Shown piece after piece: positions 9,481 through 58,298 of a DNA stretch of 64,000 nucleotides. The position numbers and the translations under genes are program-made. The notes under the pieces are model-generated. The model made no database searches and had not been told where the DNA came from. It saw nothing but the letters and a program-made list of their open reading frames with translations. Source of the stretch: a bacterium (lineage in GTDB: Bacteria; Patescibacteriota; Minisyncoccia; UBA6257; WO2-44-18). Within the stretch, counting starts at the first letter, position 1, and every line of letters starts with the position of its first letter. The stretch spans positions 76,092 to 140,091 of the forward strand of contig JAUSKF010000002.1 in the NCBI GenBank assembly GCA_030646995.1. The letters run 5' to 3'.

Positions 9481-9533
9481 GGGCTCCGGGAATAGCCTCC
9501 GGCATGTTCCTCGAAACTATTCCCTGCGCTTTG
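9481..9533 (+). repeat. short (53-bp) member of a dispersed structured repeat family (GGGCTCCGGGAATAG...CTATTCCCTGCGCTTTG)
   Basis: Matches the two ends of the 141/149-bp copies at 58299-58439 and 21179-21327; starts on the nucleotide after the secY stop codon. Confidence 0.7.
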
Positions 9534-9544
9534 TATAATATTGA

Positions 9545-9580
9545 AAAGCCCCGTTTTAAACGGGGCTTTGATTTTATTTA
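9545..9580. terminator. rho-independent terminator (bidirectional) after secY and after the minus-strand 199-aa gene
   Basis: AAAGCCCCG-TTTAAA-CGGGGCTTT stem then T-run. Confidence 0.7.
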
Positions 9581-10177
9581 TTCGATCCAGCCGCGGTCAA
9601 TGTAGCGGCCGCGATCAAAGATTGCAGATTCCAAATGCACGCTTCGGACCGGGAGAACTTTCTTAGCAGCAGTGAGTTTCTCGGCAAAGATCATTTCTGC
9701 GATTCGCGGGCTCATCCCATCGCTGATTCTTTGGGTCAGATAATACTTCAGCAGGCCGTCTTCTCTCGGCAAAAGATTTCGGCTCCAAGCCATGTTCAGG
9801 TCATCCGACAACTTCATGAAGGTCTTCACCTGATCCGGCTGCAACCCGAAGATGAAGTGAGTCTCATGGTAGATGGTTTGCGGAAAAAGTGTTGCCATTT
9901 CTCCCAGCCGGCACTCCAGTTTTGTCCTCATAATCGTGAACCCGGCCTTGCGCACATCCTCTTCCAGTTTGGTAATGTAATCTTCCATCTTCACGAAGCC
10001 GCACTGCAGATTTACCGCGCACATCATCTGTATGGGATACTGGCCCTTAGACAACTCAACCAGCACCGGCTTGATTTCGTTAGCCTTGCAGAACTTGGTC
10101 CACTTCTCAATTTCGGTCGGCGGATCAACGGTGATATGAAGCTCAAAATCCATCCTAGCCTCCTCTTCTTCTTTCAA
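9578..10177 (-). CDS. hypothetical protein inserted on the opposite strand between secY and adk
   Basis: 199-aa ORF with ordinary protein-like composition; the antisense ORF is His/Gln/Leu low-complexity. No family recognised. Confidence 0.5.
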   Translation of the reverse strand: MKEEEEARMDFELHITVDPPTEIEKWTKFCKANEIKPVLVELSKGQYPIQMMCAVNLQCGFVKMEDYITKLEEDVRKAGFTIMRTKLECRLGEMATLFPQTIYHETHFIFGLQPDQVKTFMKLSDDLNMAWSRNLLPREDGLLKYYLTQRISDGMSPRIAEMIFAEKLTAAKKVLPVRSVHLESAIFDRGRYIDRGWIE

Positions 10178-10226
10178 TGAACTAGCATACTTTATATTAA
10201 ACGCCGATCGTTGTAAAATGTTTCAT

Positions 10227-10913
10227 ATGGCAAAAGCAGTAGTAATTTATGGACCGCCCGGATCTGGAAAGGGGACACAGGCCAATCTTTTGGCATGGAC
10301 AAAAAACTATATCCACTTTGATACCGGAAAAATTTTGGAGCAATCTTTGAACGACCCGGAAAATTTAAAAGATCCGGAAGTTAAAAAAGAAAAAGAAAAT
10401 TTCGACAGCGGAATTTTGGTGACGCCGTCTTTCGTTTTAAAACTCACTGCGGAGAAAACAAAAGAAATAGGGGAGTCCGGTTTCAATATTGTTTTTAGCG
10501 GTTCACCTCGCACAATGTTTGAAGCCTTCGGCGATGATCAGAATGAGGGTCTGATTTCGGTTTTGGAAAAATCTTACGGGAAAGAGAATGTGAGTTTCTT
10601 GTTTTTGAAGATCGATCCGCAAGTGGCCATCAAGCGCAACGCCAACCGGAAAGTCTGCTCGCTTTGCGCTACGGCCATTCTATACAACGACTCTACCCAC
10701 CATCACACCGAATGCCCGCTCTGCGGCGCTAAACTGCGCACCCGAGCCGTGGATAATTTAGAAGTACTCCAGACCCGCATTAAAGAATACGAAGAACGCA
10801 CTAAGCCGATAGTTGATGAATTAAAGAAGCGCGGTTACAAAATTCTAGAAGTTGACGGAACCCCCGCTCCTTATATAGTCTTTGCGGAGGTCAAAAATAA
10901 CCTGGGACTATAA
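10227..10913 (+). CDS. adk: adenylate kinase (Zn-lid type)
   Basis: P-loop VVIYGPPGSGKGTQ, Cys4 lid CSLC...CPLCG; start set at MAKAVV. Confidence 0.85.
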   Translation: MAKAVVIYGPPGSGKGTQANLLAWTKNYIHFDTGKILEQSLNDPENLKDPEVKKEKENFDSGILVTPSFVLKLTAEKTKEIGESGFNIVFSGSPRTMFEAFGDDQNEGLISVLEKSYGKENVSFLFLKIDPQVAIKRNANRKVCSLCATAILYNDSTHHHTECPLCGAKLRTRAVDNLEVLQTRIKEYEERTKPIVDELKKRGYKILEVDGTPAPYIVFAEVKNNLGL

Positions 10914-10915
10914 AG

Positions 10916-11674
10916 ATGATTCTTAAAACTAAAGAAGAAATTGAGAAGATCCGGCAGGCCGGAAAAATTTTGGCGCAGGTAGCAAAAACCATTCTCGCGC
11001 AGGTGGAAGTAGGCGTGAATCTTAAATCGCTAGACCGACTTGCCAAGGAGCTGATTACCAAAGCAGGGGGCAGTCCGGCGTTTTTGAATTACCGGCCATA
11101 CGGCGCCGATAAACCATACGCCTTTTCTATCTGCACATCGCTAAATGAAGTCGTAGTGCACGGCACTCCGAAAGACTACAAGCTAAAGAACGGCGACATT
11201 TTAAAACTGGATTTCGGGGTGGACTATCAGGGCTACAAAGCTGACGCCGCTTGGACCATCGGAGTCGGACAAATCAGCGAGCGGGCGCAAAAATTGTTGA
11301 GAGTTACCGAAAAAGCCTTGTTTGATGGAATCAAAGCGGCAAACATCGATAAACATTTAGGTGATATCGGCCACGCAATCTCCGACACCGTTAAACAACA
11401 TGGCTTTTCAGTAGTAGACGGGCTAACCGGTCACGGAGTTGGAAAAGAATTACATGAAGATCCTAGCGTCTTCAATGAAGGGAAGAAGGGGAGTGGCCCG
11501 GTATTAAAAGAAGGTCTAGTGATCGCTATCGAACCGATGGTCAGCATTGGCTCCCCTAGCATCATCCAAACAAAAGACGAGGCCTACGCGACCGCCGACG
11601 GCAGTCTTTCCGCCCACTTTGAGCACACGATTGCGCTGACGGAAAACGGCACAGAAATACTGACTCTGATATAA
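10916..11674 (+). CDS. map: methionine aminopeptidase type I
   Basis: 252 aa, pita-bread fold motifs (FSICTSLNEVVVHG, DFGVDYQGY, HGVGKELHE). Confidence 0.9.
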   Translation: MILKTKEEIEKIRQAGKILAQVAKTILAQVEVGVNLKSLDRLAKELITKAGGSPAFLNYRPYGADKPYAFSICTSLNEVVVHGTPKDYKLKNGDILKLDFGVDYQGYKADAAWTIGVGQISERAQKLLRVTEKALFDGIKAANIDKHLGDIGHAISDTVKQHGFSVVDGLTGHGVGKELHEDPSVFNEGKKGSGPVLKEGLVIAIEPMVSIGSPSIIQTKDEAYATADGSLSAHFEHTIALTENGTEILTLI

Positions 11675-11704
11675 TAAATAAGTCGTAAAAAAATAAAAAC
11701 TTAA

Positions 11705-12163
11705 ATGCCGGAAAAATCAAAATCTAAAAAAAGGACAGTCATAGCGGTCGTTTTGTTGGCCATGGTCGCAGTAGTGTTATTACTCGGTTATTACTTATGG
11801 CAAAATGGCGGATTGGACTGGAAGCTGCCCACCTTACCACTTTTATCAGAAGCGCCCTACCAAGCGGTATTTTTGACCAATGGGCAGGTATATTTCGGTC
11901 GGGCATCTAATTTAAACGCCAATTACGTCACCTTAAAGGATGTTTATTACCTCCAAGTCAGTCAGGTTTTACAGCCGGTCCAGGGCAAAAAGGCCCCGGA
12001 AACCCAGCAATCCATCAGTTTAGCTAAACTGGGCGTTACCGAACTTCATAAACCAAAAGACGAAATGAAGATTAATCGGGCGCACGTGATATTCATCGAG
12101 GATCTAGATGATGACTCACAGGTGGTCAAAGCGATAGAGGATTACAAAGCAACGTTGAAATAG
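11705..12163 (+). CDS. hypothetical membrane-anchored protein
   Basis: 152 aa, N-terminal TM helix (VIAVVLLAMVAVVLLLGYYL). Confidence 0.5.
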   Translation: MPEKSKSKKRTVIAVVLLAMVAVVLLLGYYLWQNGGLDWKLPTLPLLSEAPYQAVFLTNGQVYFGRASNLNANYVTLKDVYYLQVSQVLQPVQGKKAPETQQSISLAKLGVTELHKPKDEMKINRAHVIFIEDLDDDSQVVKAIEDYKATLK

Positions 12164-12195
12164 AATAACGAATCAAGAATCATGAATTATGGAAA

Positions 12196-12218
12196 GGCGT
12201 CCACCCGGACGTTTTTTC
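12196..12218 (+). terminator. rho-independent terminator
   Basis: CGTCC-ACCC-GGACG followed by TTTTTT. Confidence 0.6.
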
Positions 12219-12355
12219 ATTCGTCAGGGGAGTGGCTTTCTGATTTATGAGGTACCTGTCGCAAAACCCTTCTTGTGCGACACTACCACTAATTCAAGCT
12301 GGGCGCTCCCCGACCTACTAATGCCGGTTTTTTCCTGTTATTATTTAGATGTTTT

Positions 12356-13666
12356 ATGAAGCAAGAAAAAAGAAACAGAGTTCATTTCATCGGCATCGGC
12401 GGGATTGGTATGAGCGCTTTGGCGCGATATTTTTTATCCGAAAAATGGCAGGTCTCCGGCTCCGACCTCTCCCCTTCATCTATTACCGACGAATTAAGAA
12501 AGGAGGGGGTGAAATTTTTCTCTGGTCATAAGGCTGCGAATATTTCTACAAACATCCAACTCGTCGTCTATAACAATGCGATTCCCGTCAGTAATCAGGA
12601 GTTAAGCTACGCTAAAGAGCTTGGACTCGCCTGCCGCACCTATCCGGAGGTCGTGGGTGAATTAACTAGAACTTACAAAACCATTGCCATCGCCGGCTCA
12701 CACGGGAAAAGCACTACCACCGCAATGACGGCGCTGATTCTTATTGAAGCCGGAATCGATCCGACAGTAATCGTAGGCACAAAATTGAAAGAGTTTGGTC
12801 CGCCATCCGCCCCTTCTGGCGGAGGCGGAAAAAATTTCCGTAAGGGAAAAGGCGGGTATCTGGTGCTCGAGGCCGATGAATGGAAGGCCGCCTTCCACCA
12901 CTACTCCCCTTTTGTGGCGACTATCACCAATATCGATGCCGAGCATTTGGATTTTTATAAGACTTTCGCCAACGTAAAAAAATCTTTTGAGAAATTTAAA
13001 TCACAGTGCCATAAAATCGTGGAGCGTCCGACCGACAAAAAAATTGCGGAAAAGATTCGCCGCGTCTTAAAAATACCCGGAGAGCACAATGTGCAAAACG
13101 CCTTGAATGCCTACGCGGTGGCTAGTTTTTTGGAAATCCCAGAAAAGATAATTTTGTCGGCTCTGGGTAAATACCAAGGCGCTTGGAGGCGAATGGAGTA
13201 TCGCGGAAAACTCGGGAATGCCCTCGTTTATGATGACTATGGCCACCACCCCTCCGAGATTAAGGCTACCCTAGCCGGATTTAGGCAGAAATGGCCTAAA
13301 AATGCCCTAATTTGCGTCTTTCAGCCCCATCAGGCCAAGAGACTAGTTGCGCTCTATGATAGCTTTAAAACGGCGTTTAAGGACGCTAGTCGGGTGGTTA
13401 TTCTACCTACCTATCAGGTAGCGGGCCGGGAAGCGGAAAAAACCAACAACCGACGACTAACAACTAACGACAAAACGGCGGAGGGGCTGGCTAAGGACAT
13501 CGGGGCCACTTACGTTCCCCATCCCGAAATAGACCTGAAAAAAGTCTTACTTTCCCTAGTCGCCCGGTCGTCAGTCGTAGGTCGTCAGTCGCCCCCCGTT
13601 ATCGTAATGATGGGCGCCGGAACTATTAACGAACTAACCCCCAAGCTACTAACTACTAACTACTAA
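12356..13666 (+). CDS. murC: UDP-N-acetylmuramate--L-alanine ligase
   Basis: N-terminal HFIGIGGIGMSALA, Mur ligase middle domain GSHGKSTTTAM, YGHHPSEI motif. The 3' end sits in a CTACTAA heptanucleotide repeat. Confidence 0.8.
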   Translation: MKQEKRNRVHFIGIGGIGMSALARYFLSEKWQVSGSDLSPSSITDELRKEGVKFFSGHKAANISTNIQLVVYNNAIPVSNQELSYAKELGLACRTYPEVVGELTRTYKTIAIAGSHGKSTTTAMTALILIEAGIDPTVIVGTKLKEFGPPSAPSGGGGKNFRKGKGGYLVLEADEWKAAFHHYSPFVATITNIDAEHLDFYKTFANVKKSFEKFKSQCHKIVERPTDKKIAEKIRRVLKIPGEHNVQNALNAYAVASFLEIPEKIILSALGKYQGAWRRMEYRGKLGNALVYDDYGHHPSEIKATLAGFRQKWPKNALICVFQPHQAKRLVALYDSFKTAFKDASRVVILPTYQVAGREAEKTNNRRLTTNDKTAEGLAKDIGATYVPHPEIDLKKVLLSLVARSSVVGRQSPPVIVMMGAGTINELTPKLLTTNY

Positions 13667-13678
13667 CTACTATTTTGT

Positions 13679-14452
13679 ATGGATTATTTTACAAACGTTG
13701 AACAATTCAAAGAGCAGTGCGGTTACACGATTGATGGAATTTGGTATCCGCGGGTCACAAAGATTGTTGGTATAAAAAATAAACCTGCCCTACTTTTCTA
13801 TTACGCCGAAGCTCCTAGCTATGCCGCCGCGCTGGCGCAGACGAAGATCTCGGCCGAGGAAGGCACTTTAATCCACCAGACAATGGAAAAAATATTCGTG
13901 GGAGAATCTCCGGAAATTCCGGAAAGTATCGCTCCGGCCATTAAGGCCGCCAAAGAATTAATTGCCCAAAAAGGAATCCAGATAGATGCGGCGAACATTG
14001 AGCGGAGAATATTCGACCATGAGCATCGATACGCCGGCACAATCGACGGCCTCGCTCTTATCGGCGGAAAATTTGGCGTGCTGGATATTAAAACCTCGCA
14101 GGCGATTTATCGGGATTACAATCTGCAAACTTCAGCGTATATGTTCGCCCTCTGCAAAGACCCAATCCTTTCGGGATTAAATACCCGCTGGATCTTCCGT
14201 ATCGATCAGCAAAAACAATGCTACCGATGCGGCGCTTCAATGCGCCCGAAGGGAGGACGGGAAAAAATCCGTGGCGCTAAAAAAGGAATTTGCCCGAATG
14301 ACGACAGCCATGAATGGTCCCCTCTTACCGGTATTGCCGAGCTACAAGAATTTCCGCTCTGGCGCGGGGATTTTGATGCGTTCTTGGGCGCGAAAAAATT
14401 GTGGGAGTGGGAGAATGAAGTATGGCTTCAGAAGACGGGATATTTAAAGTGA
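13679..14452 (+). CDS. PD-(D/E)XK (RecB/Cas4-like) nuclease-fold protein with C-terminal zinc ribbon
   Basis: Motif order ...GTIDGLALI...VLDIKTSQ...QTSAY (D, D/ExK, QxxxY), then CxxC...C...H. Confidence 0.45.
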   Translation: MDYFTNVEQFKEQCGYTIDGIWYPRVTKIVGIKNKPALLFYYAEAPSYAAALAQTKISAEEGTLIHQTMEKIFVGESPEIPESIAPAIKAAKELIAQKGIQIDAANIERRIFDHEHRYAGTIDGLALIGGKFGVLDIKTSQAIYRDYNLQTSAYMFALCKDPILSGLNTRWIFRIDQQKQCYRCGASMRPKGGREKIRGAKKGICPNDDSHEWSPLTGIAELQEFPLWRGDFDAFLGAKKLWEWENEVWLQKTGYLK

Positions 14453-14455
14453 TAT

Positions 14456-14506
14456 AAAAAAAGCCCCGCCACCCGCCAACATCTGCGAAGTTGTGGCGGG
14501 GCGGGG
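14456..14506. terminator. bidirectional GC-rich terminator hairpin between convergent genes
   Basis: GCCCCGCCAC...GTGGCGGGGC 10-bp stem; A/T runs on both sides. Confidence 0.65.
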
Positions 14507-14513
14507 CAGAACT

Positions 14514-14723
14514 TCACTTCCAGCAGTGGATCCGGAACAGCCGGATGCGGGCATCGGACACCTCGCTGACCATCGGATCAAGAATCTGGCGTCCGATTAC
14601 GACATCCTCCCCCTTGGTCTTCGCTTCCGTCAGATCCACGGCCTTGATTGTTTCGGCCGTGGAAACAATGTTTCCCGTGGGGTTGAGAAACTCGTAACTC
14701 ACCAGGTACTCGTTGTGGGGCAT
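14514..14723 (-). CDS. small hypothetical protein (69 aa)
   Basis: Start chosen at MPHNEY, preceded by AAGGAGAG RBS and a TTGACA-17-TAAACT promoter-like sequence. Confidence 0.4.
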   Translation of the reverse strand: MPHNEYLVSYEFLNPTGNIVSTAETIKAVDLTEAKTKGEDVVIGRQILDPMVSEVSDARIRLFRIHCWK

Positions 14724-14898
14724 AGCGCTCTCCTTGTTTGAGATGCGAACTAAAAAGAACTTAACGGCACAGGGGAAGTTTAGCATAAATATCGTGTCTT
14801 GTCAAGCCCGAAAACTTTGACAGCCCGAGCTTAGCCCCTCGAATTAACCATCAAAAAGGTTTATAATCTGGAAAGCGCAACTTGATCGGGGTCCGAAA

Positions 14899-15093
14899 AT
14901 GCTCAAGAAAAAAACCTTCTACAAAAACGGTCCGAATGCCGTCAAAGAGCTGGAAGAGGCGGTGGAAGATTGGCTGGATGAAATGGACGACAAAATTGAG
15001 ATTGAAGATATTCAGGAATTTGAAGACGAAAATGCGCAGGGAAAGATTACCATCACGGTAATTTCTTATAGAGATTTACCGGCCGACGGATAA
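14899..15093 (+). CDS. small acidic hypothetical protein (64 aa)
   Basis: ORF followed directly by a terminator; Asp/Glu-rich. Confidence 0.4.
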   Translation: MLKKKTFYKNGPNAVKELEEAVEDWLDEMDDKIEIEDIQEFEDENAQGKITITVISYRDLPADG

Positions 15094-15095
15094 AA

Positions 15096-15118
15096 CTGCC
15101 CCACTAGGGCAGTTTTTA
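15096..15118 (+). terminator. rho-independent terminator
   Basis: CTGCCC-CACTA-GGGCAG + TTTTT. Confidence 0.6.
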
Positions 15119-15122
15119 ATAG

Positions 15123-15950
15123 CTAGGCAGGCCTCCCTGATTTTTCAAATATCTTCAAGAATCTTCCGTAAGCGGCTTTTATATCGGGATTAACCGCAGG
15201 ATGTTTTGAAAAGCTTTCCGCCTGTTCTTTTAACTTTCCAATCAATCTCATCGAAGACTCGACGAGCTCATCAGATTCCACTCCTCCGGCCAAGTCGCGC
15301 ATCATACCCTCTAACTCGTCGCCGTCAAAAGAAATTATAAAATACGGAAGCTTTTGATTAGCTTTTTTTACCGCTTTATATCCGGGAGCCTCTTTTGTTT
15401 CCTCCAACGCATAGCCATATTTTACTTCCGCACCGTTTAATACTTTCTGAATTATTTCTTTTTGATCCTTTAGTTTAGCGGCCTGATTAGTGGTGGCATC
15501 AATAGCGGCCAATGGTTCGCGGGTAATCGTATCAAAAATTAAATTATCTACCTTATTACCGCACATATCATCATATTCAGAAGAGCGGACGGCAATGAAT
15601 CTTCCGCCAAACCAATGACTGTTTACCCCGGAAGTCTTTGTAACTTCCAACGCCTCCCCTACCGCCTTTTCAGCTTTCTTCTCCGGACTCGCGGCTGATT
15701 CTTTTTCAAATTTTGCCTTCAATTTTTTGGTTAGCGTCAGGTCGTCTTTTATCTCTTTTATCGGCACAGGGCCCAAAAACGCCTCCATTTTGACTCGGCA
15801 GTTTTCGTCCACATCAAAACCGAACTTATTCAACTTCTCCGCCTGCATTTTTAACTCCGGAGCCAATTGCTCTAATTTCTCCTGAAAAAACTCTCCCCTG
15901 TCTAATTTCTCGGTTTTAGATTCCGGCCGGCCGAATTTCATAGTAATCAA
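15123..15950 (-). CDS. hypothetical protein (275 aa)
   Basis: Long ORF, protein-like composition, no recognised family. Confidence 0.5.
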   Translation of the reverse strand: MITMKFGRPESKTEKLDRGEFFQEKLEQLAPELKMQAEKLNKFGFDVDENCRVKMEAFLGPVPIKEIKDDLTLTKKLKAKFEKESAASPEKKAEKAVGEALEVTKTSGVNSHWFGGRFIAVRSSEYDDMCGNKVDNLIFDTITREPLAAIDATTNQAAKLKDQKEIIQKVLNGAEVKYGYALEETKEAPGYKAVKKANQKLPYFIISFDGDELEGMMRDLAGGVESDELVESSMRLIGKLKEQAESFSKHPAVNPDIKAAYGRFLKIFEKSGRPA

Positions 15951-16743: not shown

Positions 16744-19101
16744 CTACCCCCTAAGCCTCTTCAAAATATCCAACTCCACCATCTGCCGATTGCGGCCGTA
16801 AACTTCCCGGGATAGATTCTTTGCTTTATCAATCATATTCAAATTGCCTTTTGCCGGAGGGAAAATATGGATATTGAAAGGCCTGGCGGTCTGCCCTTTA
16901 ATTAAAAGCTTCGCGAAGGCGTTGAAGTTATCGATATTCAACAAGTCATTTTTCGTAAAGACCGGCTCGAATTGCTTCACCAGAAATTCCGCATCTTCGG
17001 CGCCAACACGGAAGACAATCTGCGAACCGACGTTACCAAAAACCGCGTCGCGGATTTTTTCGGTCAACTGGCCGATAAACTGATGCGCGATTACCAAATT
17101 CAAACGATATTTCCGGGCTTCCGACAAAATCGTGGCGATAGAATCAGTGGTAAAGTTTTGGAACTCATCAATATACAAAGTAAAATCTTTCCTCTCTTCC
17201 TGCGCTGTGTCTACTCTAGAAAGCGCGGCAAGCAGAAGCTTTCCAACCACGACCATACCCAATAATCCGGCGTTAATATCCCCTATCTTACCTTTGGATA
17301 AATTCACCAACAAAATCTTCCCTTCATCCATAATCTTCCGGAAATTCAACGAAGAATTTGGCTGACCGATAATCGGACGTATATAATCATTCGAAGTGAA
17401 ATTATTAAACTTAGAGGTGATGTAGGGCGTCATATTCGCCAGCGAAGCCTCTCCTCCCGCCTTGATGGCTTCCTTTTCCCAAAAATCAATCACCGTCGGG
17501 TTAGTCGCTTTTTGTAAAAGACGCTTCCGATAATCCACGTCGGTAAAAACCCGCGGCACTTCCATAATAGTGGCGTGCTCATTCGGGTCATCCATAAGCA
17601 GTAGCAAGGCGTTCCGCATATACTGCTCAAACATCGGACCCATTGTTTCCGGATTGAAGAGTTTATTAAAAATACTCTGCATCTCATTGACGATAAAAGT
17701 CTTTTCTTCGGGCCGATTCGCATCGTATTCAAGCATATTCAAACCCAAAGGATGCTGGAGATCCCCCGGATCAAAAATCACCACATCTTTAAGGCGTTCT
17801 TCCGGAATTAAACCGAGCATATGCTCAATTAAATCTCCGTGCGGATCCACCACTGCTATCCCCTTTCCCGCCTGAATATCCCCTGTGGCCATATTAAACA
17901 TCGCCGTGGATTTACCGGTACCGGTCTGACCGATAACGTAAACGTGGCGGCGACGGTCTTCATCGGTAATAAACACTGGCCTTGATTCTCCACGGAATAC
18001 ACTTTCTCCTATCAACATTCCTCTATCCGGCAAAACAGACGGCGGTGGCGCGGACTCTTTCGACTTTACCCATTTCAATCTTGGAATTTCCGTCAGAGAA
18101 GTCGGGAGGTGCCAGATGCTCGCAATCTCGTCGGCATTCAAAATCATACTTTGGCTTTCATCGAATTCACGAAAAACAAATTTAAAAACCAAATCTTTCG
18201 GGTTACGCAGTTCGGATACTTTAAATTCGTTTCTCAAAGGAGCGGCAAATTGACTAAACGAGCCGGTTAGGGCGTAGAGCAATTCCTCCGCGCGATAGGC
18301 AGACGGGGCCGAAGAGACCAGCCGCACATTCACTTCAAATAACGGCTTAGAAACCTTCTGATTCAGAAGCTTCACCGCTTCTTCGTCTATCACCACAGGT
18401 TCCGGTTTATCTTCGGGTTTGGGCGGAGCTTTAGGAAGAATTCTACTAAGCAATTTAGTGTGGAAAAGATCACCCAACTTCTCTCCCTTCTTCAAACGAC
18501 CGATATAACTGGAAATACTTTTCCTTGCGGATTCGGGTGCCGGACGCACTAAAACTTGGAGCGCTATGCCTTCACCCGCCAACTCTACTTTGGAAAAATT
18601 ACTCAACATCGGCAAAAAGGTATCAATGTTCGCCTCGGCAAAAGTCCGCACCGGAGTGGCGTAATGTTGTTTTAATTTTAGAAAAGCCGCTTTTACTGCT
18701 CCCTGCGAATTAAAGATTGTGTAATCGTCGCATTTAGTCACCTGCGCGTCGGGCCAAAGCCCTTGAACCTGTTTCGCGGCGAACTCCATTGATTCCTCCG
18801 GCACAGCGACATAGAAATGAATATCCTCGCCTACGTTATGTACCGCCACCTCCAAGGAAAACGGTATCTTCAAGCCGGACAGGAGGCCGAAAAGCTGGCT
18901 GGAAGAATTAATCTCCTGCAGCATATCTTTCTTCTCCCGCTCGTCCATTTTTTGCGCCAAGCGTACGGATAAAAGCCGCAAGCGCAAAGTCTTTAGAAAT
19001 TGCCTACGTCGATTTTTTAGAAAACTCAAAACCGCCAAAACCATTGCCACAATTAGCAATGGAATGCCAAAAGAAACTGCTAACGCAATGTATCGGTCCA
19101 T
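16744..19101 (-). CDS. membrane-anchored P-loop ATPase of the HerA/VirB4/TraG (type IV secretion / conjugative coupling-type) superfamily
   Basis: N-terminal TM; Walker A VIGQTGTGKST, VVDPHGDL, Walker B LYIDEFQNF, then RKYRLNLVIAHQFIGQL. Confidence 0.5.
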   Translation of the reverse strand: MDRYIALAVSFGIPLLIVAMVLAVLSFLKNRRRQFLKTLRLRLLSVRLAQKMDEREKKDMLQEINSSSQLFGLLSGLKIPFSLEVAVHNVGEDIHFYVAVPEESMEFAAKQVQGLWPDAQVTKCDDYTIFNSQGAVKAAFLKLKQHYATPVRTFAEANIDTFLPMLSNFSKVELAGEGIALQVLVRPAPESARKSISSYIGRLKKGEKLGDLFHTKLLSRILPKAPPKPEDKPEPVVIDEEAVKLLNQKVSKPLFEVNVRLVSSAPSAYRAEELLYALTGSFSQFAAPLRNEFKVSELRNPKDLVFKFVFREFDESQSMILNADEIASIWHLPTSLTEIPRLKWVKSKESAPPPSVLPDRGMLIGESVFRGESRPVFITDEDRRRHVYVIGQTGTGKSTAMFNMATGDIQAGKGIAVVDPHGDLIEHMLGLIPEERLKDVVIFDPGDLQHPLGLNMLEYDANRPEEKTFIVNEMQSIFNKLFNPETMGPMFEQYMRNALLLLMDDPNEHATIMEVPRVFTDVDYRKRLLQKATNPTVIDFWEKEAIKAGGEASLANMTPYITSKFNNFTSNDYIRPIIGQPNSSLNFRKIMDEGKILLVNLSKGKIGDINAGLLGMVVVGKLLLAALSRVDTAQEERKDFTLYIDEFQNFTTDSIATILSEARKYRLNLVIAHQFIGQLTEKIRDAVFGNVGSQIVFRVGAEDAEFLVKQFEPVFTKNDLLNIDNFNAFAKLLIKGQTARPFNIHIFPPAKGNLNMIDKAKNLSREVYGRNRQMVELDILKRLRG

Positions 19102-23532: not shown

Positions 23533-23540
23533 AAAAACAA

Positions 23541-23566
23541 CCCCCTCATTGAGGGGGTTTTTGTTG
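23541..23566 (+). terminator. rho-independent terminator
   Basis: CCCCCTC-ATT-GAGGGGG + TTTTTGTT. Confidence 0.7.
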
Positions 23567-23629
23567 CCAAAGCTATTTTTTTCTGGTAAAATAACTCCGG
23601 TTACTTTTACAAGAAAAGAGGAGGCTAGA

Positions 23630-24910
23630 ATGAACCGCGCAGTAATCGTGGACGGAGTACGAACTCCTTTTATGAAGGCGGGCTCGCTGACGAGTCTGCG
23701 GGCAACTACTCTGGGATGCGACGTAATCGAACATTTGCATCTGAATCTTCATGGGTTCCGGCTCGAGGACATTGATTTGGTAATTGGCGCCAACGTCGGC
23801 AACCAAGTTCTCCCCCCCGACGGTTCTAATCTGACCCGCCTGATTGCCTTAAAAGCAGGGATTCCAATAAAAGTTCCGGCTTTTACGGTAAATATCAATT
23901 GCGCTAGCGGCCTTCATGCCATTTTGACAGCGGTGAAAGAGGTGGAGCTGGGTCTGGCGAATTGCGTATTGGTGGTAGCGGTAGAAGTAATGTCGGATTA
24001 CACCGCCGCCTACAGCCGTAAACAGCGGCAGAAATTCGCTAATCTCCTGACAGCATCGAGAAGTAAATCGCTTTTGAAAAAGCTTTCATCCACCGCTTCA
24101 GCGCTTGTGAAAGTAAAGATTATGAAGCATGACCCGCAGTGGATGATTAAACTCGGTTTGACCGATCCGTCCTGTAATTTGAGTATGGATAAGGTTTCCG
24201 ACAAGATTGCCGAGAAATACAAAATTTCCCGAGAAGAGCTGGATCTCTATGCTCTGGAGTCTCACCGAAGAGCAAATAATGCATCAGATCGTTTGCGCGG
24301 AGAAATGTGTTCATTCACCCTGAATGGAAAAAAAGAGCTGCCGTGGTTCTATGATGACGGCGTTCGGCCAAATCAGACTTTGGCGGCACTCGCGAAATTG
24401 AAACCGCTGAATGAAGGCGGGGTCACGACCGCAGGAAATTCCTCCCAGATCACTGACGGCGCCGTGGCATTCCTAATCGCCAACAAAGAATGGGCAGCAG
24501 CAAGAAAGCTTCCTGTGCTAGCCGCGATGAGTTCTAAAAATTCTGCGGCCTGCGGCTGTGAACCCTCGATGATGGGTCTCGGGCCGGTCGGCGCTATCTC
24601 TAAGTTGAGGGCGCAGGGTTGGACCAAGATGAGTGATTTCTCTGTTGTGGAGACCAATGAAGCTTTCGCTTCTGTGGTGCTCGCTCAGTCGAAGATGCTC
24701 AAAGAGATTGGAATGGGTCCGCTTGATTGGGATCGCACCAACGTAAATGGCGGCGCGATCGCTATCGGCCATCCGATCTCCGCAAGTGGTGCCAGACTGG
24801 TGTTGACCTGCGCGAAAGAACTTCAGCGACGCAATCAGCAATATGGCCTCGTGACACTTTGTGTCGGTGGCGGCCAGGGTGTCGCGGCAGTGATTGAAAA
24901 CAATGAGTAG
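23630..24910 (+). CDS. fadA: acetyl-CoA C-acyltransferase / 3-ketoacyl-CoA thiolase (FadA-type)
   Basis: Thiolase N-terminus VIVDGVRTPF, active-site region NINCASGL, C-terminal NVNGGAIAIGHP and CVGGGQG; GAGGAGG RBS. Confidence 0.8.
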   Translation: MNRAVIVDGVRTPFMKAGSLTSLRATTLGCDVIEHLHLNLHGFRLEDIDLVIGANVGNQVLPPDGSNLTRLIALKAGIPIKVPAFTVNINCASGLHAILTAVKEVELGLANCVLVVAVEVMSDYTAAYSRKQRQKFANLLTASRSKSLLKKLSSTASALVKVKIMKHDPQWMIKLGLTDPSCNLSMDKVSDKIAEKYKISREELDLYALESHRRANNASDRLRGEMCSFTLNGKKELPWFYDDGVRPNQTLAALAKLKPLNEGGVTTAGNSSQITDGAVAFLIANKEWAAARKLPVLAAMSSKNSAACGCEPSMMGLGPVGAISKLRAQGWTKMSDFSVVETNEAFASVVLAQSKMLKEIGMGPLDWDRTNVNGGAIAIGHPISASGARLVLTCAKELQRRNQQYGLVTLCVGGGQGVAAVIENNE

Positions 24911-24916
24911 CCCCAT

Positions 24917-24951
24917 CCCCGTGTTCAACGCGTTGAACACGGGGATTTTTT
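24917..24951 (+). terminator. rho-independent terminator, member of the CAACGCGTTG hairpin family
   Basis: CCCCGTGTTCAACGCGTTGAACACGGGG perfect 28-nt palindrome + TTTTTT. Confidence 0.75.
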
Positions 24952-24953
24952 AT

Positions 24954-24989
24954 ATAACACTTATGTCCTGGTCAGGATATAAGTGTTAT
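24954..24989. promoter_or_regulatory. 36-bp near-perfect palindrome (candidate operator) between fadA terminator and fadB start
   Basis: ATAACACTTAT-GTCCTGGTCAGGAT-ATAAGTGTTAT, nested inner palindrome TCCTG..CAGGA. Confidence 0.4.
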
Positions 24990-25064
24990 ATTTTCATTCT
25001 TGATTTTTCGTTGAGTTCCTGTTATTTTAAGTTCGGTTCGTTCACAAACGAAAGGGAGAAAATA

Positions 25065-27080
25065 ATGAGTAAGTTCTGGAAATGTTCGACCGACGAAGAA
25101 GGAAATATGGTTGCCGAGCTTGATCTCGGACCGGATGAAAAGCAAAACCTTTTGCGGGCGGAAGTTCTGAAGGAATTGAACGTCATTTTGTCTACGAACA
25201 ACCCGAAGTGTCTGATTATCACGACTGCCAAGCCGCACAGTTTCTGCGCGGGCGCGGATGTCGGAGAAATCAACGCTTTGGCGAACGGGAAACAGGAACA
25301 TCTGGTAGCAGCTCTCGAGAGTATGCATGCGCTTCTGCTGAAGATTCGCAATTCCTCTTATCCAATCGTGGCCGCGACTTCCGGAGAATGTCTGGGGGGC
25401 GGAACCGAACTAGTACTCGCCTGCCACAAGCGCATTGCCGCAAGACACCCTAAGACGCGCTTCGGCTTGCCTGAAGTGATGCTGGGAGTGATTCCCGGTT
25501 TCGGTGGAACACAGCTGTTGCCAAAGTTGGTCGGAGTCCGGAAAGCAATGGAAGTGATTGTTGGCCAGAGGAAGCTCTCGGCTGATGATGCTCTCAAATG
25601 CGGATTAGTGGACAAAGTTGTGATTCCGGAACTGCTAATCGTGGAGGCAAAAAAAATTGCGTTTGAAGAAACGGAACGTAAGAAACTTTCGTGGGTAGAC
25701 AGAATCGGCGCCGTTCGTGATTTCGTGATGAGAATGGCAAAAAAGCAGACTCTGAAAGCCACGAAAGGTGTCTACCCTGCTCCGATGAAAGCCATCGAAG
25801 CAATCGATTTCAGCGACGCCAATCTGGAAGACGGTTTGGCCCGTGAAGGCCAACTCTTCCTCGAATGCGCCGCGACGATGGAGTCCGCCAGCTTGCGGGA
25901 TATTTTTCTGAAACAGCGCGAGGCAAAATCCAAAGATTGGATTGGTGTCAATCCGCCATCCGCCCATTCTGGCGGAGGCGGAACTCCTCCGGAAAAAGTA
26001 CTTATGCTCGGTGCCGGCGTAATGGGACGCGCAATCGCTTACGCCGTTCTGGCGGGAGGCGTGAGGGTGAACCTGCACGATATGAGTTCAAAAGCGATTC
26101 ACGAAGCGGTATTGTTCATCGAAGGACAGCTCGCTAAAGAAGTCAAAAAGAGCAAGCTCTCGCTTGAGAAAGCGCAGGGCATGCGCGATCGGCTGATTGT
26201 CAGCTACGGCGATGAGCCGACGATCGATGGCGTGGATTTCGTGATTGAGGCGATCGTGGAAGATCTGACCATCAAGCCGCGGGTTCTAGCCGAGCTGGAA
26301 AAGAAACTTCCGGAGAATGCGGTCATCGCCACCAACACTTCTTCGCTCCTGCCGAGCGATATTGCCGCTCCCCTGACTCGCAAAGACAAGTTCTGCGCGA
26401 TGCACTTCTTCAACCCGGCCCACAAAATGGACCTGGTAGAGATCGTTGGCACGGCGGAAACTTCCAAAGAAACTCTGGCAAAAACGCTGGCGCTCATCAA
26501 AGCGATGGGTAAGACCCCGATCCTTTTGGATAAGGAATGCGCCGGCTTGCTGGTGAATCGAGTACTGGTGCGTGGAATGGCTAAGGCGCTTGATTGTCTA
26601 TTGTCGGGAGAAGATCCTTGGGAAATAGACATGGCGCTCGAAGGGGCCGGAATGGTTATGGGTCCGTTCAAAACCATCGACCTCGTCGGCTTCGACATTG
26701 CCTACCACGTGATGAAGATGATGGGCCACTACTATCCGGAGATTTACGGGAAAACAGAAGTCGGCAATCTGGAGCTGCACAAGTTTAAGGACATACTCGG
26801 TCAGAAAACCGGTAAAGGTTTCTATGTCTGGGAGAACAACAAAGCCGTAAAGCCCAACAAGGAAATTTTGAAGAAGTTCGGCTGGGAGTTGTTCCCACAT
26901 GACAAAGAAATCGGAGCATTGGACTGCTGTCATTTGATCCGCAAAGAAATGAACGAAGAAGCGATGGCGCTCGTTAGCGAACGCATCTGCTCCGATCCGA
27001 ATATGATTGACCTCTCGCTGGTACTGGGTGCCGGACTCTTCCCGAACCGGCGCGGACTGCTGAAAAATCCGATCATCTAA
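25065..27080 (+). CDS. fadB: multifunctional fatty-acid oxidation protein (enoyl-CoA hydratase + 3-hydroxyacyl-CoA dehydrogenase, FadB/FadJ-like)
   Basis: N-terminal crotonase fold, then GAGVMGRAIA Rossmann NAD site, 3HCDH C-terminal domain; AAAGGGAG RBS. Confidence 0.8.
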   Translation: MSKFWKCSTDEEGNMVAELDLGPDEKQNLLRAEVLKELNVILSTNNPKCLIITTAKPHSFCAGADVGEINALANGKQEHLVAALESMHALLLKIRNSSYPIVAATSGECLGGGTELVLACHKRIAARHPKTRFGLPEVMLGVIPGFGGTQLLPKLVGVRKAMEVIVGQRKLSADDALKCGLVDKVVIPELLIVEAKKIAFEETERKKLSWVDRIGAVRDFVMRMAKKQTLKATKGVYPAPMKAIEAIDFSDANLEDGLAREGQLFLECAATMESASLRDIFLKQREAKSKDWIGVNPPSAHSGGGGTPPEKVLMLGAGVMGRAIAYAVLAGGVRVNLHDMSSKAIHEAVLFIEGQLAKEVKKSKLSLEKAQGMRDRLIVSYGDEPTIDGVDFVIEAIVEDLTIKPRVLAELEKKLPENAVIATNTSSLLPSDIAAPLTRKDKFCAMHFFNPAHKMDLVEIVGTAETSKETLAKTLALIKAMGKTPILLDKECAGLLVNRVLVRGMAKALDCLLSGEDPWEIDMALEGAGMVMGPFKTIDLVGFDIAYHVMKMMGHYYPEIYGKTEVGNLELHKFKDILGQKTGKGFYVWENNKAVKPNKEILKKFGWELFPHDKEIGALDCCHLIRKEMNEEAMALVSERICSDPNMIDLSLVLGAGLFPNRRGLLKNPII

Positions 27081-27089
27081 TAACCTCAA

Positions 27090-27116
27090 GCCCCCTTTTC
27101 AAAGGGGGTTTTTTGT
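27090..27116 (+). terminator. rho-independent terminator
   Basis: CCCCCTT-TTCAA-AGGGGG + TTTTTTGTTTT. Confidence 0.7.
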
Positions 27117-27153
27117 TTTAAAATAGCTTCGGTTCCTTAATAAGGAGAAAGAC

Positions 27154-29139
27154 ATGGACGTTGCCAAGTCTTTGGGAGCGGGAGTGGCGATTGCAGAAGC
27201 AAGTCGCGACAAAGAAAAGCTGGCCAGTCTGATGCCGGATATTTTCCGGGGAAAGTTGGATGTCAGTTATTTCGAAGATCTTCCGAAAGACACTTTGTGC
27301 GATTTGAAGTTCCAGGCGAACTATCGAAAACTCGAGGAATTTTTGAAAACGGAAGTCGATCCGAATGAGATCGAGAAAACCAATGAAGTTCCGAAAGGGG
27401 TCTTGGATTGGCTTTGTGAAAATGGCTACTTCGCTCTGAAGTTGCCGGAAAAGTATGGCGGTATGAATCTGTTGCAGTCCCAGTATATGGCGCTGCTTCA
27501 GCTGACTGCCACGCGTTGCGGAGCGCTCGTTGCTTTGCTTTCTGCCTCCAACACCATCGGTGTCGGTTGGCCGATCATGGCTTTCGGCTCTCCGGAACAG
27601 CAGGATACCTGGCTTCCATTGGTTGCTAAGTCCCCTTCCGGATTCGCCTTCACTGAAGAAAAGGCCGGTTCCGATCCTTCCAGTATGGAAACCCATGCTG
27701 TGCGGGTTCGCGAAAACGGTAAGGTGGCCGGTTACCAGATTAGCGGTCGCAAGTGGTGGACCACTAACGGCCCGGCCAGCGACAATTCCTATCTTTCCAA
27801 GGTGATCATTGTGATCGCCAAGATCGTGGATTATCCGGATCAGCTTTCCGATTTGGAATACAAAAAGAATCCCGTTTTCGGAGCTTTTATTGTTCCGACT
27901 GGTTCTCCGGGAGTAAAGGTTGTTCAGAGATGTGAGTTCCTCGGTTTGAGGGGCATCTACAACGGCATCACGGACTTCGAAAAAGTCTACATTCCGCTCG
28001 AACAGCTGATCGGGAAGAAGACCGATTCCAGCGGAAAAACCGAATACTATCAGGAAGGTTCCGGTTTCCGGATCGCTTTGCAGGCGCTCAACAGCGGCCG
28101 AATCACGGTCTCCGGTTGTTGCTCTGCAACTGCCAAGATCGCTCTGCAAGTCGAGCGTTGGTGGGGTCTTACCCGCCATCAGTGGGGAAAGCAGATCGGC
28201 CAGCATGAACTTGTTGGCACCGGAAAGCTTGCCGAAGGCGTCGCGAAAGCTTTTACGATGGAAGCGATGACCTGGTTTGCCGCCGGTCGCGCTGATAAGC
28301 ATCTGGATTGCCGGATGGAGGCCGCGACTGCCAAAGTCTTCAATTCCGAACAACTCTGGCAGATCGTTGATGATCTGGCGCAGATCCGTGGTGGACGAGC
28401 CTACGAAACTCCGGAATCTCTGAAGAAGCGAGGCGAAGCGCCGATCCCAGTTGAAAGAATGATCCGCGATGCTCGGCCGAATCGAATCTTCGAAGGCGAA
28501 TCCTCGATCCTTGGACTGTTCGTAGTTCGTGAAGGAGTTGAGGAATACAAGGCGCAGGGTGAAATCTTCTTTGAAAAAGGCCGGTACGGAAAGAAAATGA
28601 AGGCCGCTGTTGGCTTCGCGAAAGAACTCGCTAAGCTTTCTATCCCGAACTTTAAAATGCGTTCACAAATCAAAAAGTTCTCGAAGGATTGGCCTCAGCT
28701 TGCGAAGCACCTACTTCACGCAGATAAGTGCGCGCGGAAGCTGGCAAAAGCGATCATTATCATTTCCGGTAAGTACCAGGCCAAGCTGATGCATAAGCAG
28801 CTGACCCTTACCCGGTTCTTCAATATCGCCACCGAGATCTACGCGATGGCCGCTGTTTGCGGATACGTGATCAAGGAGTGGCCGGTCCACGCAAAGGCTG
28901 ATCTGGCTGACTTCTATTGCCAGGGAGCCCGCCGTAGGATCGAAAAAGAATTCGCCGCCTTGTCGGACAACAGTGATGCGCTCGGTCGCAAAATTGCCAA
29001 TCTCACTCTAATGAATGGCTACGAAGATTTCCTTACGGACGGCACCATTCCGATGGTTGAGATGCTGGATCTGAAAGATCCCCAGCCTCCGAACCTCATG
29101 CCGCTGCCGCACTCACGCCGTGTTGATCGTAAAGCCTAA
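27154..29139 (+). CDS. long-form acyl-CoA dehydrogenase
   Basis: ACAD N-, middle and C-terminal domain motifs (GYFALKLPEKYGG, FAFTEEKAGSDPSSMET, WWTTNGP, QIRGGRAYE), ~250-aa extra C-terminal domain. Confidence 0.75.
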   Translation: MDVAKSLGAGVAIAEASRDKEKLASLMPDIFRGKLDVSYFEDLPKDTLCDLKFQANYRKLEEFLKTEVDPNEIEKTNEVPKGVLDWLCENGYFALKLPEKYGGMNLLQSQYMALLQLTATRCGALVALLSASNTIGVGWPIMAFGSPEQQDTWLPLVAKSPSGFAFTEEKAGSDPSSMETHAVRVRENGKVAGYQISGRKWWTTNGPASDNSYLSKVIIVIAKIVDYPDQLSDLEYKKNPVFGAFIVPTGSPGVKVVQRCEFLGLRGIYNGITDFEKVYIPLEQLIGKKTDSSGKTEYYQEGSGFRIALQALNSGRITVSGCCSATAKIALQVERWWGLTRHQWGKQIGQHELVGTGKLAEGVAKAFTMEAMTWFAAGRADKHLDCRMEAATAKVFNSEQLWQIVDDLAQIRGGRAYETPESLKKRGEAPIPVERMIRDARPNRIFEGESSILGLFVVREGVEEYKAQGEIFFEKGRYGKKMKAAVGFAKELAKLSIPNFKMRSQIKKFSKDWPQLAKHLLHADKCARKLAKAIIIISGKYQAKLMHKQLTLTRFFNIATEIYAMAAVCGYVIKEWPVHAKADLADFYCQGARRRIEKEFAALSDNSDALGRKIANLTLMNGYEDFLTDGTIPMVEMLDLKDPQPPNLMPLPHSRRVDRKA

Positions 29140-29143: not shown

Positions 29144-29172
29144 TCACCGCCCAGAAATGGGCGGTTTTTATT
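29144..29172. terminator. bidirectional terminator
   Basis: CCGCCCA-GAAA-TGGGCGG + TTTTTATTT. Confidence 0.65.
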
Positions 29173-29551
29173 TATCTTTAGCAAACCAAGCCTCTTTAAT
29201 CTCGGCCATCAATTCATCCGAAATAGGCAATCGCTTTCCGGGCTGACTTTTGCCGGGGTAACGCCAAGTAGAAATCATCACTCTTGTTGAACTTTTTACT
29301 TTCAACTTTTCACTATTCAACTCCCCCGAGCCAATTGCATACATCAGCCAAATCTCCTGCTTCCGCTTTGGTGTATCATTCCGCATCATCACCGCCAAAG
29401 TTCCTTCGGCGACCCCCTCTTCCTTGCGGGCGGGGTTTTTCAAAATAGTTTTAATTTTTTGCTCGGAAATGCCGTAAAAAAGCATCTTATCTTTTATATG
29501 CTGGGTCCACCGGAAATTCTTGTCGTTTTTAGGAAACTTCACGAAAGACAT
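29168..29551 (-). CDS. hypothetical protein (127 aa)
   Basis: ORF convergent with the ACAD gene; no family recognised. Confidence 0.45.
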   Translation of the reverse strand: MSFVKFPKNDKNFRWTQHIKDKMLFYGISEQKIKTILKNPARKEEGVAEGTLAVMMRNDTPKRKQEIWLMYAIGSGELNSEKLKVKSSTRVMISTWRYPGKSQPGKRLPISDELMAEIKEAWFAKDK

Positions 29552-51257: not shown

Positions 51258-51466
51258 GTGCCGCGGGAGGGAATCGCCTACAACTCTCGCCTCGCCGTCG
51301 CTCGGTTCGGTCGCAGGCCGCCCCTCGCGACCCCGCAAGCTTGCGGGGTATCGCTGCGTTCTTCAATATCCCTACGCGAGCCAAACAATTGGCTCGCTCC
51401 CGCCGCTACAAACAAAAAATAAAGCGCCTTTTCGTGGCGCTTTATTTTTCTGTTGTGCCGCGGGAG
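51258..51466 (-). ncRNA. GC-rich multi-hairpin segment ending (minus strand) in a 17-nt duplicate of the tRNA 3' end plus templated CCA (ATTCCCTCCCGCGGCAC-CA)
   Basis: Closed by a 12-bp helix 51262-51273 / 51395-51406; internal perfect hairpins ACCCCGCAAGCTTGCGGGGT and GCGAGCCAAACAATTGGCTCGC; terminators on both sides. Confidence 0.45.
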
Positions 51467-58238: not shown

Positions 58239-58242
58239 CGGG

Positions 58243-58262
58243 TTGTCCCGCAAACGGGACAA
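58243..58262. promoter_or_regulatory. perfect palindrome TTGTCCCG-CAAA-CGGGACAA 4 nt upstream of the SPFH start codon
   Basis: Seen directly. Confidence 0.4.
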
Positions 58263-58298
58263 TGGCAATAAAGTAGCAAGAAATCTTATTAAAGTCAA

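Follow-up and report, generated by a model that had tools for sequence, protein, structure and literature searches.

β-Oxidation in the candidate phyla radiation (CPR; Patescibacteria) was described by Castelle et al. 2017 for "Candidatus Parcunitrobacter nitroensis", whose co-localized β-oxidation genes are highly divergent from those outside the CPR (PMC5220378). Later surveys report β-oxidation to be mostly absent from the group (PMC9166423, PMC11809585, PMC12361377), fadBDN are listed without detail among the genes of CPR metagenome-assembled genomes (MAGs) (PMC11608272), and Jaffe et al. 2020 (PMC7304191) and Beam et al. 2020 (PMC7507113) make no mention of the pathway. Here we analyzed a 64-kb stretch of the 162-kb contig JAUSKF010000002.1, hereafter the window, in which three consecutive genes on the plus strand (the fad block, positions 23630 to 29139) encode a 3-ketoacyl-CoA thiolase, a FadB-type bifunctional enzyme and a long acyl-CoA dehydrogenase (ACAD). 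In our assessment, this trio probably represents a working long-chain-type β-oxidation cycle in a CPR host, inherited vertically as an old trait and organized in units that are probably co-regulated. The suggestion in the original prediction that such genes might reflect an unusual lineage capacity fits the surveys cited above. No earlier description of a syntenic long-chain trio was found in the searchable literature, which is not proof that there is none.

The genes of "Ca. Parcunitrobacter", which belongs to the Parcubacteria within the CPR, were likewise argued by their authors not to have been acquired recently (PMC5220378). The ACADs of that organism are short-chain enzymes (glutaryl-CoA and short/branched-chain types), its hydratases are monofunctional, and it encodes a 3-hydroxybutyryl-CoA dehydrogenase, an acyl-CoA synthetase, respiratory complexes and, next to the β-oxidation genes, electron-transfer flavoprotein (ETF), whereas the window encodes a long ACAD and a fused hydratase-dehydrogenase, with no ETF or synthetase within its 64 kb. 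The FadI-FadJ system of E. coli (6YSV, 8BNU) resembles the window in having the thiolase gene first, followed by the fused hydratase/dehydrogenase gene, and the best NCBIfam model for the latter is FadJ. In contrast to E. coli, the window proteins score far below the equivalog cutoffs, the thiolase matches generic thiolases, the genes form separate units with their own terminators, and the dehydrogenase is ACAD9/VLCAD-like rather than FadE or YdiO.

The mitochondrial long-chain system (VLCAD/ACAD9 with HADHA/HADHB) has in common with the window an ACAD that bears both an additional helical domain at its C terminus and the catalytic Glu; the window ACAD best matches ACAD9 and VLCAD, and the FadB-type protein scores 284 bits against the alpha subunit of the human trifunctional protein (TFP). 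However, identity is only 23 to 26%, neither ETF nor ETF-quinone oxidoreductase was seen in the window, and the host comes from a bacterial group generally reported to have no respiratory chain. Finally, syntrophs of the Syntrophomonas type perform β-oxidation anaerobically, and for them, too, getting rid of the electrons from the ACAD is thermodynamically difficult. These fatty acid oxidizers use ETF, membrane Fe-S oxidoreductases and reverse electron transport; unlike in such organisms, nothing comparable to this machinery was seen in the window.

Pfam and NCBIfam scans recovered the three plus-strand genes with exactly the limits originally predicted and confirmed their assignment to the thiolase, FadB-type and long ACAD families (Table 1). 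The scans covered the 62 window open reading frames (ORFs) of at least 100 amino acids (aa), i.e., all plausible genes except three short ORFs inside the ribosomal-protein operon. The thiolase matched Pfam Thiolase_N (2.4e-47, 162 bits) and Thiolase_C (3e-36, 124 bits) and passed the cutoff of the NCBIfam acetyl-CoA C-acyltransferase model TIGR01930 (346.8 against 240.55). The motifs NCASG, NEAFA, AIGHP and LCVGGGQG are legible in its translation and contain what we take, from general knowledge, to be the nucleophilic Cys, the His and the second Cys, all of which are present. The protein stayed below the cutoffs of all named NCBIfam equivalogs (best, PRK08170, 304 against 593; FadI, 208 against 560), although it aligned over its full length with the 436-position FadI model. 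Its top PDB matches are generic thiolases, not the trifunctional-enzyme beta subunit. The syntenic thiolases of relatives are 55 to 61% identical, and the ∼430-aa subfamily turned up in a representative search.

The FadB-type protein, identical in sequence to NCBI entry MDO8466718.1, consists of an N-terminal crotonase fused to a dehydrogenase (ECH_1 at residues 70 to 261 and 3HCDH_N/3HCDH at residues 368 to 646, in the numbering of the longer ORF). Its closest PDB entries are the E. coli FadJ-type alpha subunits 8bnu/6ysv (312 bits; residues 19 to 660 in the 8bnu alignment), followed by human TFP alpha. In an alignment of the 26 members of its clade (see below), GGGxE115, PE137, G316xG318xxG321, H447FFNP and E459 are invariant; these presumably correspond to the two hydratase Glu residues, the GxGxxG NAD site and the His-Glu dyad. 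The best NCBIfam models were FadJ (425.4 against a cutoff of 869) and FadB (414.4 against 870), and scores so far under the equivalog level point to a distinct subfamily.

The ACAD passed the cutoff of Pfam PF21343 (ACAD9/ACADV_C; 34.2 bits against 27.8) and missed that of the NCBIfam FadE equivalog (142 against 600). A sequence comparison with the PDB placed ACAD9 (157 bits) and VLCAD (126 bits) closest to it. These two enzymes were also the best fold matches (8phf, 3b96, 2uxw) of the predicted ACAD model (pLDDT 89, pTM 0.89), with TM scores of 0.84 to 0.87 over ∼620 columns. The catalytic Glu447 lies in an FEG motif, in which E447 and G448 are invariant in 28 sequences, and IFEG of the query aligns with IFEG of ACAD9. 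A reading of the protein as an acyl-CoA oxidase found no support, with no oxidase among the top 50 fold matches; oxidase activity is still possible. As enzymes, the three proteins are ordinary representatives of known families; what is unusual is their host.

That this host belongs to the CPR, as the original prediction had proposed, was borne out by the relatives of SecY and by the missing L30. The window starts with a ribosomal-protein operon (L4, L2, S19, L22, S3, L16 ... L6, L18, S5, L15, SecY), in which S5 (7118-7690) ends at 7690 and L15 (7695-8177) starts at 7695, so that L30 is absent. The nearest named SecY proteins are those of Parcubacteria GW2011_GWA2_47_8b (75%), "Candidatus Harrisonbacteria" (74% and 70%) and a "Patescibacteria group bacterium", and every named SecY match with a lineage is from Parcubacteria, "Ca. 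Harrisonbacteria" or Patescibacteria, at 69 to 75% identity. Many window ORFs match no Pfam family, and the window encodes a type IV pilin. Judging from these proteins, the host is a Parcubacteria (Harrisonbacteria-related) CPR bacterium.

Since chimeric MAG contigs occur and the GC content of the fad genes exceeds that of their neighbors, a chimeric contig or contamination might in principle have placed non-CPR metabolic genes beside CPR core genes. However, both junctions of the block recur in independent assemblies (GCA_007376445.1, GCA_964545345.1, GCA_964354905.1, GCA_023244815.1, GCA_964637575.1), as well as in ENA Hainich contigs and in Logan contigs of several runs. An ACAD of the same clade was also found in a genome named by NCBI "Patescibacteria group bacterium AH-259-L05". 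We thus regard such an artifact as extremely unlikely. An ACAD identical to that of the window is encoded on a 10.6-kb Logan contig, and an exact-sequence search with the window FadB matched no indexed contig.

The trio occupies the same slot in at least six independent assemblies from different studies (L001, L003, L084, L086, L088 and L091, the L-numbers denoting loci of relatives used for comparison). The shared gene order runs from a type IV secretion system (T4SS)-coupling-like gene (DUF8128) through YchF, sometimes an AAA_28 gene, thiolase, FadB, ACAD and a small minus-strand ORF to PMT_2, a 245-aa ORF, Alr, SerRS, AspRS and GreA, as seen in the contexts of five clade members. Synteny of the trio extends to relatives with only 46 to 52% FadB identity. 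The block is present in all relatives with an Alr identity of at least 73% whose sequence spans the slot (L003, L084 and L091; L090 ends before it) and also in several relatives at an Alr identity of 60 to 64%.

FadB falls into a group of 26 proteins that are 41 to 100% identical, the next matches being 35 to 37% identical and from many phyla, and ACAD into a group of 22 proteins at 44 to 100%, followed by matches at 39% or less. In the neighbor-joining (NJ) tree of FadB, the 26 clade members split from all others with a bootstrap support of 1.0 (supports are explicit bipartition counts over NJ bootstraps), with a Yanofskybacteria FadB (L013) as sister to the clade. A thiolase and a long ACAD are encoded in the L013 genome as well, though the genes are arranged differently, and the L013 ACAD nests with the clade. 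The ACAD group of the window stands apart from all named non-CPR matches. L013 and a further locus, L005, were the useful yield of a peptide-pattern contig scan, whose other listed matches were mostly distant non-CPR FadB homologues. Because relatives hold the genes at the same chromosomal spot, we favor the view that the fad block would be an old, vertically inherited feature of the clade, with a fixed position bounded by the YchF side at one end and a conserved 127-aa ORF at the other, and not a recent import.

An Alr-anchored metagenome scan yielded 80 further loci, whose slot states were tabulated by tblastn. The slot is empty in L104, L112, L114, L146 and L163, where the 127-aa ORF lies directly beside YchF; L132 and L136 have no 127-aa ORF, and YchF directly follows Alr. 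In L092 the slot holds a lone 383-aa ACAD (14536-15687, minus strand), and in L097 (9362-12681, minus strand) it holds a 694-aa protein together with a 3-hydroxyacyl-CoA dehydrogenase. The L097 protein is a fusion of enoyl-CoA hydratase and ACAD (ECH-ACAD) that is unusual in itself. L003 (12174-14093) and L091 have orthologous thiolase and FadB, but their ACAD is only 33 to 34% identical to that of the window; since this ACAD lies outside the clade in the NJ tree, an in-place replacement is indicated. In an NJ tree of two proteins, Alr and SerRS, which served as the species tree, the fad-bearing loci form two subclades with a bootstrap support of 1.0 each, and the clearly empty loci lie outside both. 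We therefore favor a history in which the slot would have been remodeled in some relatives and left empty in more distant ones through later loss and remodeling. A single old gain in an ancestor, from a source outside the CPR with no identifiable donor, is possible.

The original prediction had suggested horizontal acquisition as one possibility and had noted, by eye, a GC content above that of the ribosomal operon. The segment is indeed richer in GC (0.514 to 0.522, against a window mean of 0.462), and the G+C content at third codon positions (GC3) of the fad genes, 0.55 to 0.61, lies 1 to 2 standard deviations above the mean of 0.494 (standard deviation, 0.058) for the 60 window genes used as the composition reference. 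A Shine-Dalgarno (SD) motif was found in 9 of these 60 genes (at longest-ORF starts), namely, in all four genes of the block including the adjoining AAA_28 gene and in 5 of the 56 others. ACAD and FadB, moreover, rank second and fourth of 18 long genes in codon-usage deviation. These features would be in line with a recent acquisition of the block as an island from a non-CPR donor.

However, the fad genes are equaled or exceeded in GC content by malate synthase, PGI, Band7 and one hypothetical gene, and the scaled chi-square values of synonymous codon usage for the fad genes (0.15 to 0.23) lie inside the range of the long window genes (0.08 to 0.31; SecY, 0.21). The excess in GC and GC3 recurred in five of five relatives tested and tracked the GC content of each genome (in L088, 0.59 to 0.62 against 0.53). 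The raised GC was thus real, but codon usage stayed within the core-gene range and the GC offset is common to relatives, which argues for a stable property of the genes and not for an unameliorated import. Nor was an integrase, transposase or flanking repeat seen next to the block in Pfam and repeat scans. The nearest homologues are the syntenic relatives, with nothing above 39% identity outside the CPR. Given the synteny in at least six relatives with FadB identities down to 46%, the CPR-only FadB clade, the separation of the ACAD from non-CPR proteins and the shared GC excess, a recent transfer into this genome is very unlikely and largely refuted.

An ATPase of 785 aa resembling T4SS-coupling proteins (16744-19101, minus strand; T4SS-DNA_transf, DUF87 and TraG-D_C in the window, DUF8128 in relatives) is encoded 4.5 kb from the block. 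Since it is found at the same position in relatives, including L092 with neither thiolase nor fadB, its gene appears to belong to the CPR core and not to be a sign of mobility. In composition, the Band7/SPFH gene (575 aa, 56664-58391, minus strand) stands out more than the fad genes do: its GC3 (0.705) is the highest of the window, and of the long genes it deviates most in codon usage (0.31).

Each fad gene is followed by its own terminator, a G+C-rich hairpin with a T-run, as had been predicted. Together with the terminator upstream of the thiolase unit, these sites all rank in the top 5 by strength of 26 listed sites (11 kb scanned; 15.2 expected). We also observed a common promoter signature, TAWWWT-N4-YCGGTT, of which the 64 kb contain exactly three copies where 0.26 would be expected; not one of 100 shuffled sequences reached that number. 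The copies lie 25 to 43 nucleotides (nt) 5' of the fad start codons, and the other 57 genes have no exact copy. The fad genes of L001, L003, L084, L086, L088, L091 (three exact), L171 and L172 are also preceded by the motif or a near variant, with fadB of L003, at its annotated start, as the sole fad gene showing no match. The fadB promoter is near-identical in L171, L172 and L084, and the ACAD promoter sequence is also found upstream of the ACAD gene in L003. Variants with TCAGTT or GCAGTT precede the alternative acyl-CoA genes of L092 and L097.

The position of YCGGTT fits a transcription start, making it a candidate initiator or regulator site, and the leaders that follow it are 20 to 30 nt long, with a strong SD site. 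Based on their own promoters and terminators, the three fad genes are predicted to be three separate transcription units. They are probably co-regulated, since all three combine a sigma-70-type, extended -10 promoter with YCGGTT four bases further on and an SD leader. The AAA_28 gene lies directly 5' of the thiolase gene in five genomes (the window, L003, L084, L088 and L091) and is missing from the empty-slot relatives. Its product had no PDB sequence match and no NCBIfam family, and its C-terminal half is uncharacterized; by its position, the gene is a possible accessory member of the fad block.

Table 1. Coordinates of genes and predicted signals in and around the fad block of the window
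Feature	Position	Strand	Description
AAA_28 P-loop protein, 370 aa	22420..23532	+	Pfam AAA_28 1.9e-19
Predicted terminator closing the AAA_28 gene and insulating the thiolase unit	23539..23559	+	9-bp stem, 6 G-C pairs, T-run; terminator on both strands
Predicted thiolase promoter	23564..23602	+	-35 TTGCCA, 17-nt spacer, TG-extended -10 TAAAAT, AACT-CCGGTT; scan 10/12 with TG; exact motif 23587-23602
3-Ketoacyl-CoA thiolase, 426 aa	23630..24910	+	Long ∼430-aa type, insertion in N-domain
Predicted intrinsic terminator of thiolase	24915..24946	+	Perfect 16-nt inverted repeat; 14 stem pairs, 4-nt loop, TTTTTT
Near-perfect palindrome, 40 bp	24952..24991		19-nt arms, 95% complementary, 2 nt between
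Predicted fadB promoter	25000..25038	+	-35 TTGATT, 17-nt spacer, TGT-TATTTT, AAGT-TCGGTT; exact motif 25023-25038
Bifunctional enoyl-CoA hydratase/3-hydroxyacyl-CoA dehydrogenase, FadB/FadJ-type alpha subunit, 671 aa	25065..27080	+	Pfam ECH_1, 3HCDH_N, 3HCDH
Predicted intrinsic terminator of fadB	27088..27111	+	10-bp stem, then T-run
Predicted ACAD promoter	27119..27134	+	-10 TAAAAT, then AGCT-TCGGTT; exact motif match
Long acyl-CoA dehydrogenase (ACAD), 661 aa, ACAD9/VLCAD-like, extra C-terminal helical domain	27154..29139	+	Pfam ACAD N, M and C domains plus ACAD9/ACADV_C
Predicted intrinsic terminator of ACAD	29146..29165	+	8-bp stem, 6 G-C pairs, T-run; convergent with the 127-aa ORF at 29168-29551 (-)

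In front of fadB, the original prediction had described a 36-bp palindrome at 24954-24989 and proposed it as a binding site for a TetR/FadR-type repressor. The palindrome is real, but its full size is 40 bp (Table 1). It is long, near-perfect and unique in the window, its half-site occurring elsewhere no more than expected by chance, and its 3' end lies 8 nt before the fadB -35 box, all of which would suit an operator controlling fadB. At a comparable place before the ACAD promoter, L001 carries a palindrome of its own: its region 12040-12245 contains, between the fadB terminator and the ACAD promoter, a 36-bp palindrome (GGTTGCTTTTATGACC...GGCCATAAAAGCAACC) unrelated to that of the window. 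Such palindromes may be recurrent but non-homologous.

In contrast, the window palindrome is kept in none of seven relatives examined: it is absent from the thiolase-fadB spacer of L003, L084, L086, L088, L171 (70% FadB identity) and L172 (66%), and L001 has no such spacer. This is despite the adjoining fadB promoter being conserved nearly base for base in relatives with no palindrome. As RNA, the palindrome folds into an 18-bp hairpin followed by UUUU, which the terminator scan scored as terminator-like, and together with the thiolase terminator it forms tandem hairpins of -46.1 kcal/mol (z = -9.8). With the element unconserved and no TetR, GntR or other helix-turn-helix regulator among the scanned window ORFs, the operator reading is unsupported, and we consider it quite unlikely. 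The palindrome appears to be specific to this genome and may act as a second terminator-like hairpin, or it may be a binding site or insertion particular to this strain.

If the trio functions as its architecture suggests, the ACAD9/VLCAD-like flavoenzyme would desaturate acyl-CoA, the FadB/FadJ-type enzyme would hydrate the resulting enoyl-CoA and oxidize the product with NAD+, and the thiolase would release acetyl-CoA. The cycle would then run catabolically on fatty acids scavenged from a host organism or the environment. Scavenging is suggested by the reported lack of fatty acid synthesis in CPR bacteria and by the L005 locus (8661-15551). This locus, from a MAG labeled Saccharibacteria and the most divergent clade member (41% FadB identity), encodes a long-chain-fatty-acid-CoA-ligase-like protein and a patatin-like phospholipase directly after thiolase and FadB, with no ACAD near these two genes. 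Such a gene set suggests a route from phospholipid via free fatty acid and acyl-CoA to β-oxidation.

The acetyl-CoA formed may feed ATP formation and/or malate synthase A, which is encoded 17 kb away (46343-47944, minus strand; TIGR01344, 660 bits against a cutoff of 594.5; Pfam MS_TIM-barrel, 5e-95; GC3, 0.57) and is a possible acetyl-CoA sink. This enzyme is unusual for the CPR, because isocitrate lyase but not malate synthase was found in groundwater CPR bacteria (PMC12114108). No isocitrate lyase was seen in the window. The neighbor of the malate synthase A gene encodes an amidohydrolase (44136-45641, minus strand).

Several observations weigh against the trio being a working and anciently inherited long-chain cycle. 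An ACAD cannot turn over in the absence of a high-potential electron acceptor, and neither an acyl-CoA synthetase nor ETF, ETF-quinone oxidoreductase or any respiratory component was found in the 64 kb or in the ±10-kb flanks of five relatives. The absence of acyl-CoA synthetase and ETF from the window had already been noted in the original prediction; consistently, no ETF, AMP-binding or TetR/GntR domain was present in the 62 scanned ORFs, and tblastn with the FadD-like protein of a relative gave no match in the window. Electron-transport chains are, moreover, generally lacking in the CPR (PMC7507113). None of the fad proteins reaches the FadJ, FadB or FadE equivalog level, so that the substrate range follows from architecture only. 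With regard to inheritance, the node joining the two fad-bearing subclades has a bootstrap support of only 0.40 in a two-protein NJ tree, and a single gain is thus not proven. The FadB NJ tree is also not obviously congruent in detail with the Alr-SerRS tree.

The missing respiratory chain would instead favor a reductive or fermentative direction, which is the main functional rival to a catabolic cycle. Here, reverse β-oxidation would elongate or remodel scavenged acyl chains to supply membrane lipids, or butyrate-like products would serve as an electron sink. The thiolase and FadB reactions are reversible, and the crotonase-Bcd-like fusion and Hbd-like gene in the slot of L097 make up a gene set that is typical for butyrate pathways. 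Fatty acid synthesis is reported to be missing from CPR bacteria, and how they make their membranes is unresolved (PMC9166423, PMC12114108); butyrate production was considered for "Ca. Parcunitrobacter" by Castelle et al. (PMC5220378). However, the ACAD of the window has the ACAD9/VLCAD architecture, neither EtfAB nor a Ter-type reductase was seen in the window, and the link to an acyl-CoA ligase and a phospholipase in L005 points to degradation. To our knowledge, the ACAD9/VLCAD type is catabolic and is not known as an enoyl-CoA reductase. We therefore view the reductive direction as rather unlikely and retain catabolic long-chain β-oxidation as the probable function.

A bolder extension, which we offer tentatively and judge to be doubtful, is that the Harrisonbacteria-related clade lives partly on host membrane lipids. 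It would do so by means of a co-regulated long-chain β-oxidation regulon with no canonical ETF or respiratory chain, the ACAD electrons passing to O2 or to an unidentified partner and the acetyl-CoA being captured by malate synthase A. If true, the clade would have a carbon and energy economy based on lipids, which has not been described for CPR bacteria.

Several further features of the window were observed in the course of the analysis. A tRNA-Phe(GAA) gene (51455-51761, minus strand) is split by a 234-nt group I intron and was detected by ARAGORN only with introns allowed. The intron scored 41.4 bits (E = 4e-9) against Rfam RF00028, under the gathering score of 50, and default tRNA and Rfam scans missed the gene. 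A partial copy of the tRNA-Phe 3' end (GTGCCGCGGGAGGGAAT) lies at 51258-51275. About 10 of the 60 window genes have a TATAAT-like box ending 3 to 14 nt before the start codon, a proximity that suggests leaderless or near-leaderless mRNAs. Repeated motifs similar to TTTAAATATTTAAA occur in the spacers of the ribosomal-protein operon, e.g., before S3, S5 and GreA.

In the usual picture, CPR bacteria are fermentative symbionts that neither make nor burn fatty acids, and their handling of lipids is an open question. In one Parcubacteria clade, we find a syntenic long-chain-type trio that is conserved across the clade and has a promoter signature of its own, a combination which argues for a trait maintained by selection and not for a one-off import or a binning error. 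The main additions here are the evidence for long-term retention of the block, an "acyl-CoA slot" whose content varies between relatives, a promoter element common to the three genes and the question of the electron acceptor. The trio poses the puzzle of which acceptor receives the ACAD electrons, given that neither ETF nor quinones are expected in its host. It also provides leads for cultivation and transcriptome studies, with fatty acids or host lipids as candidate substrates, malate synthase as a possible sink and YCGGTT as a candidate regulatory element.

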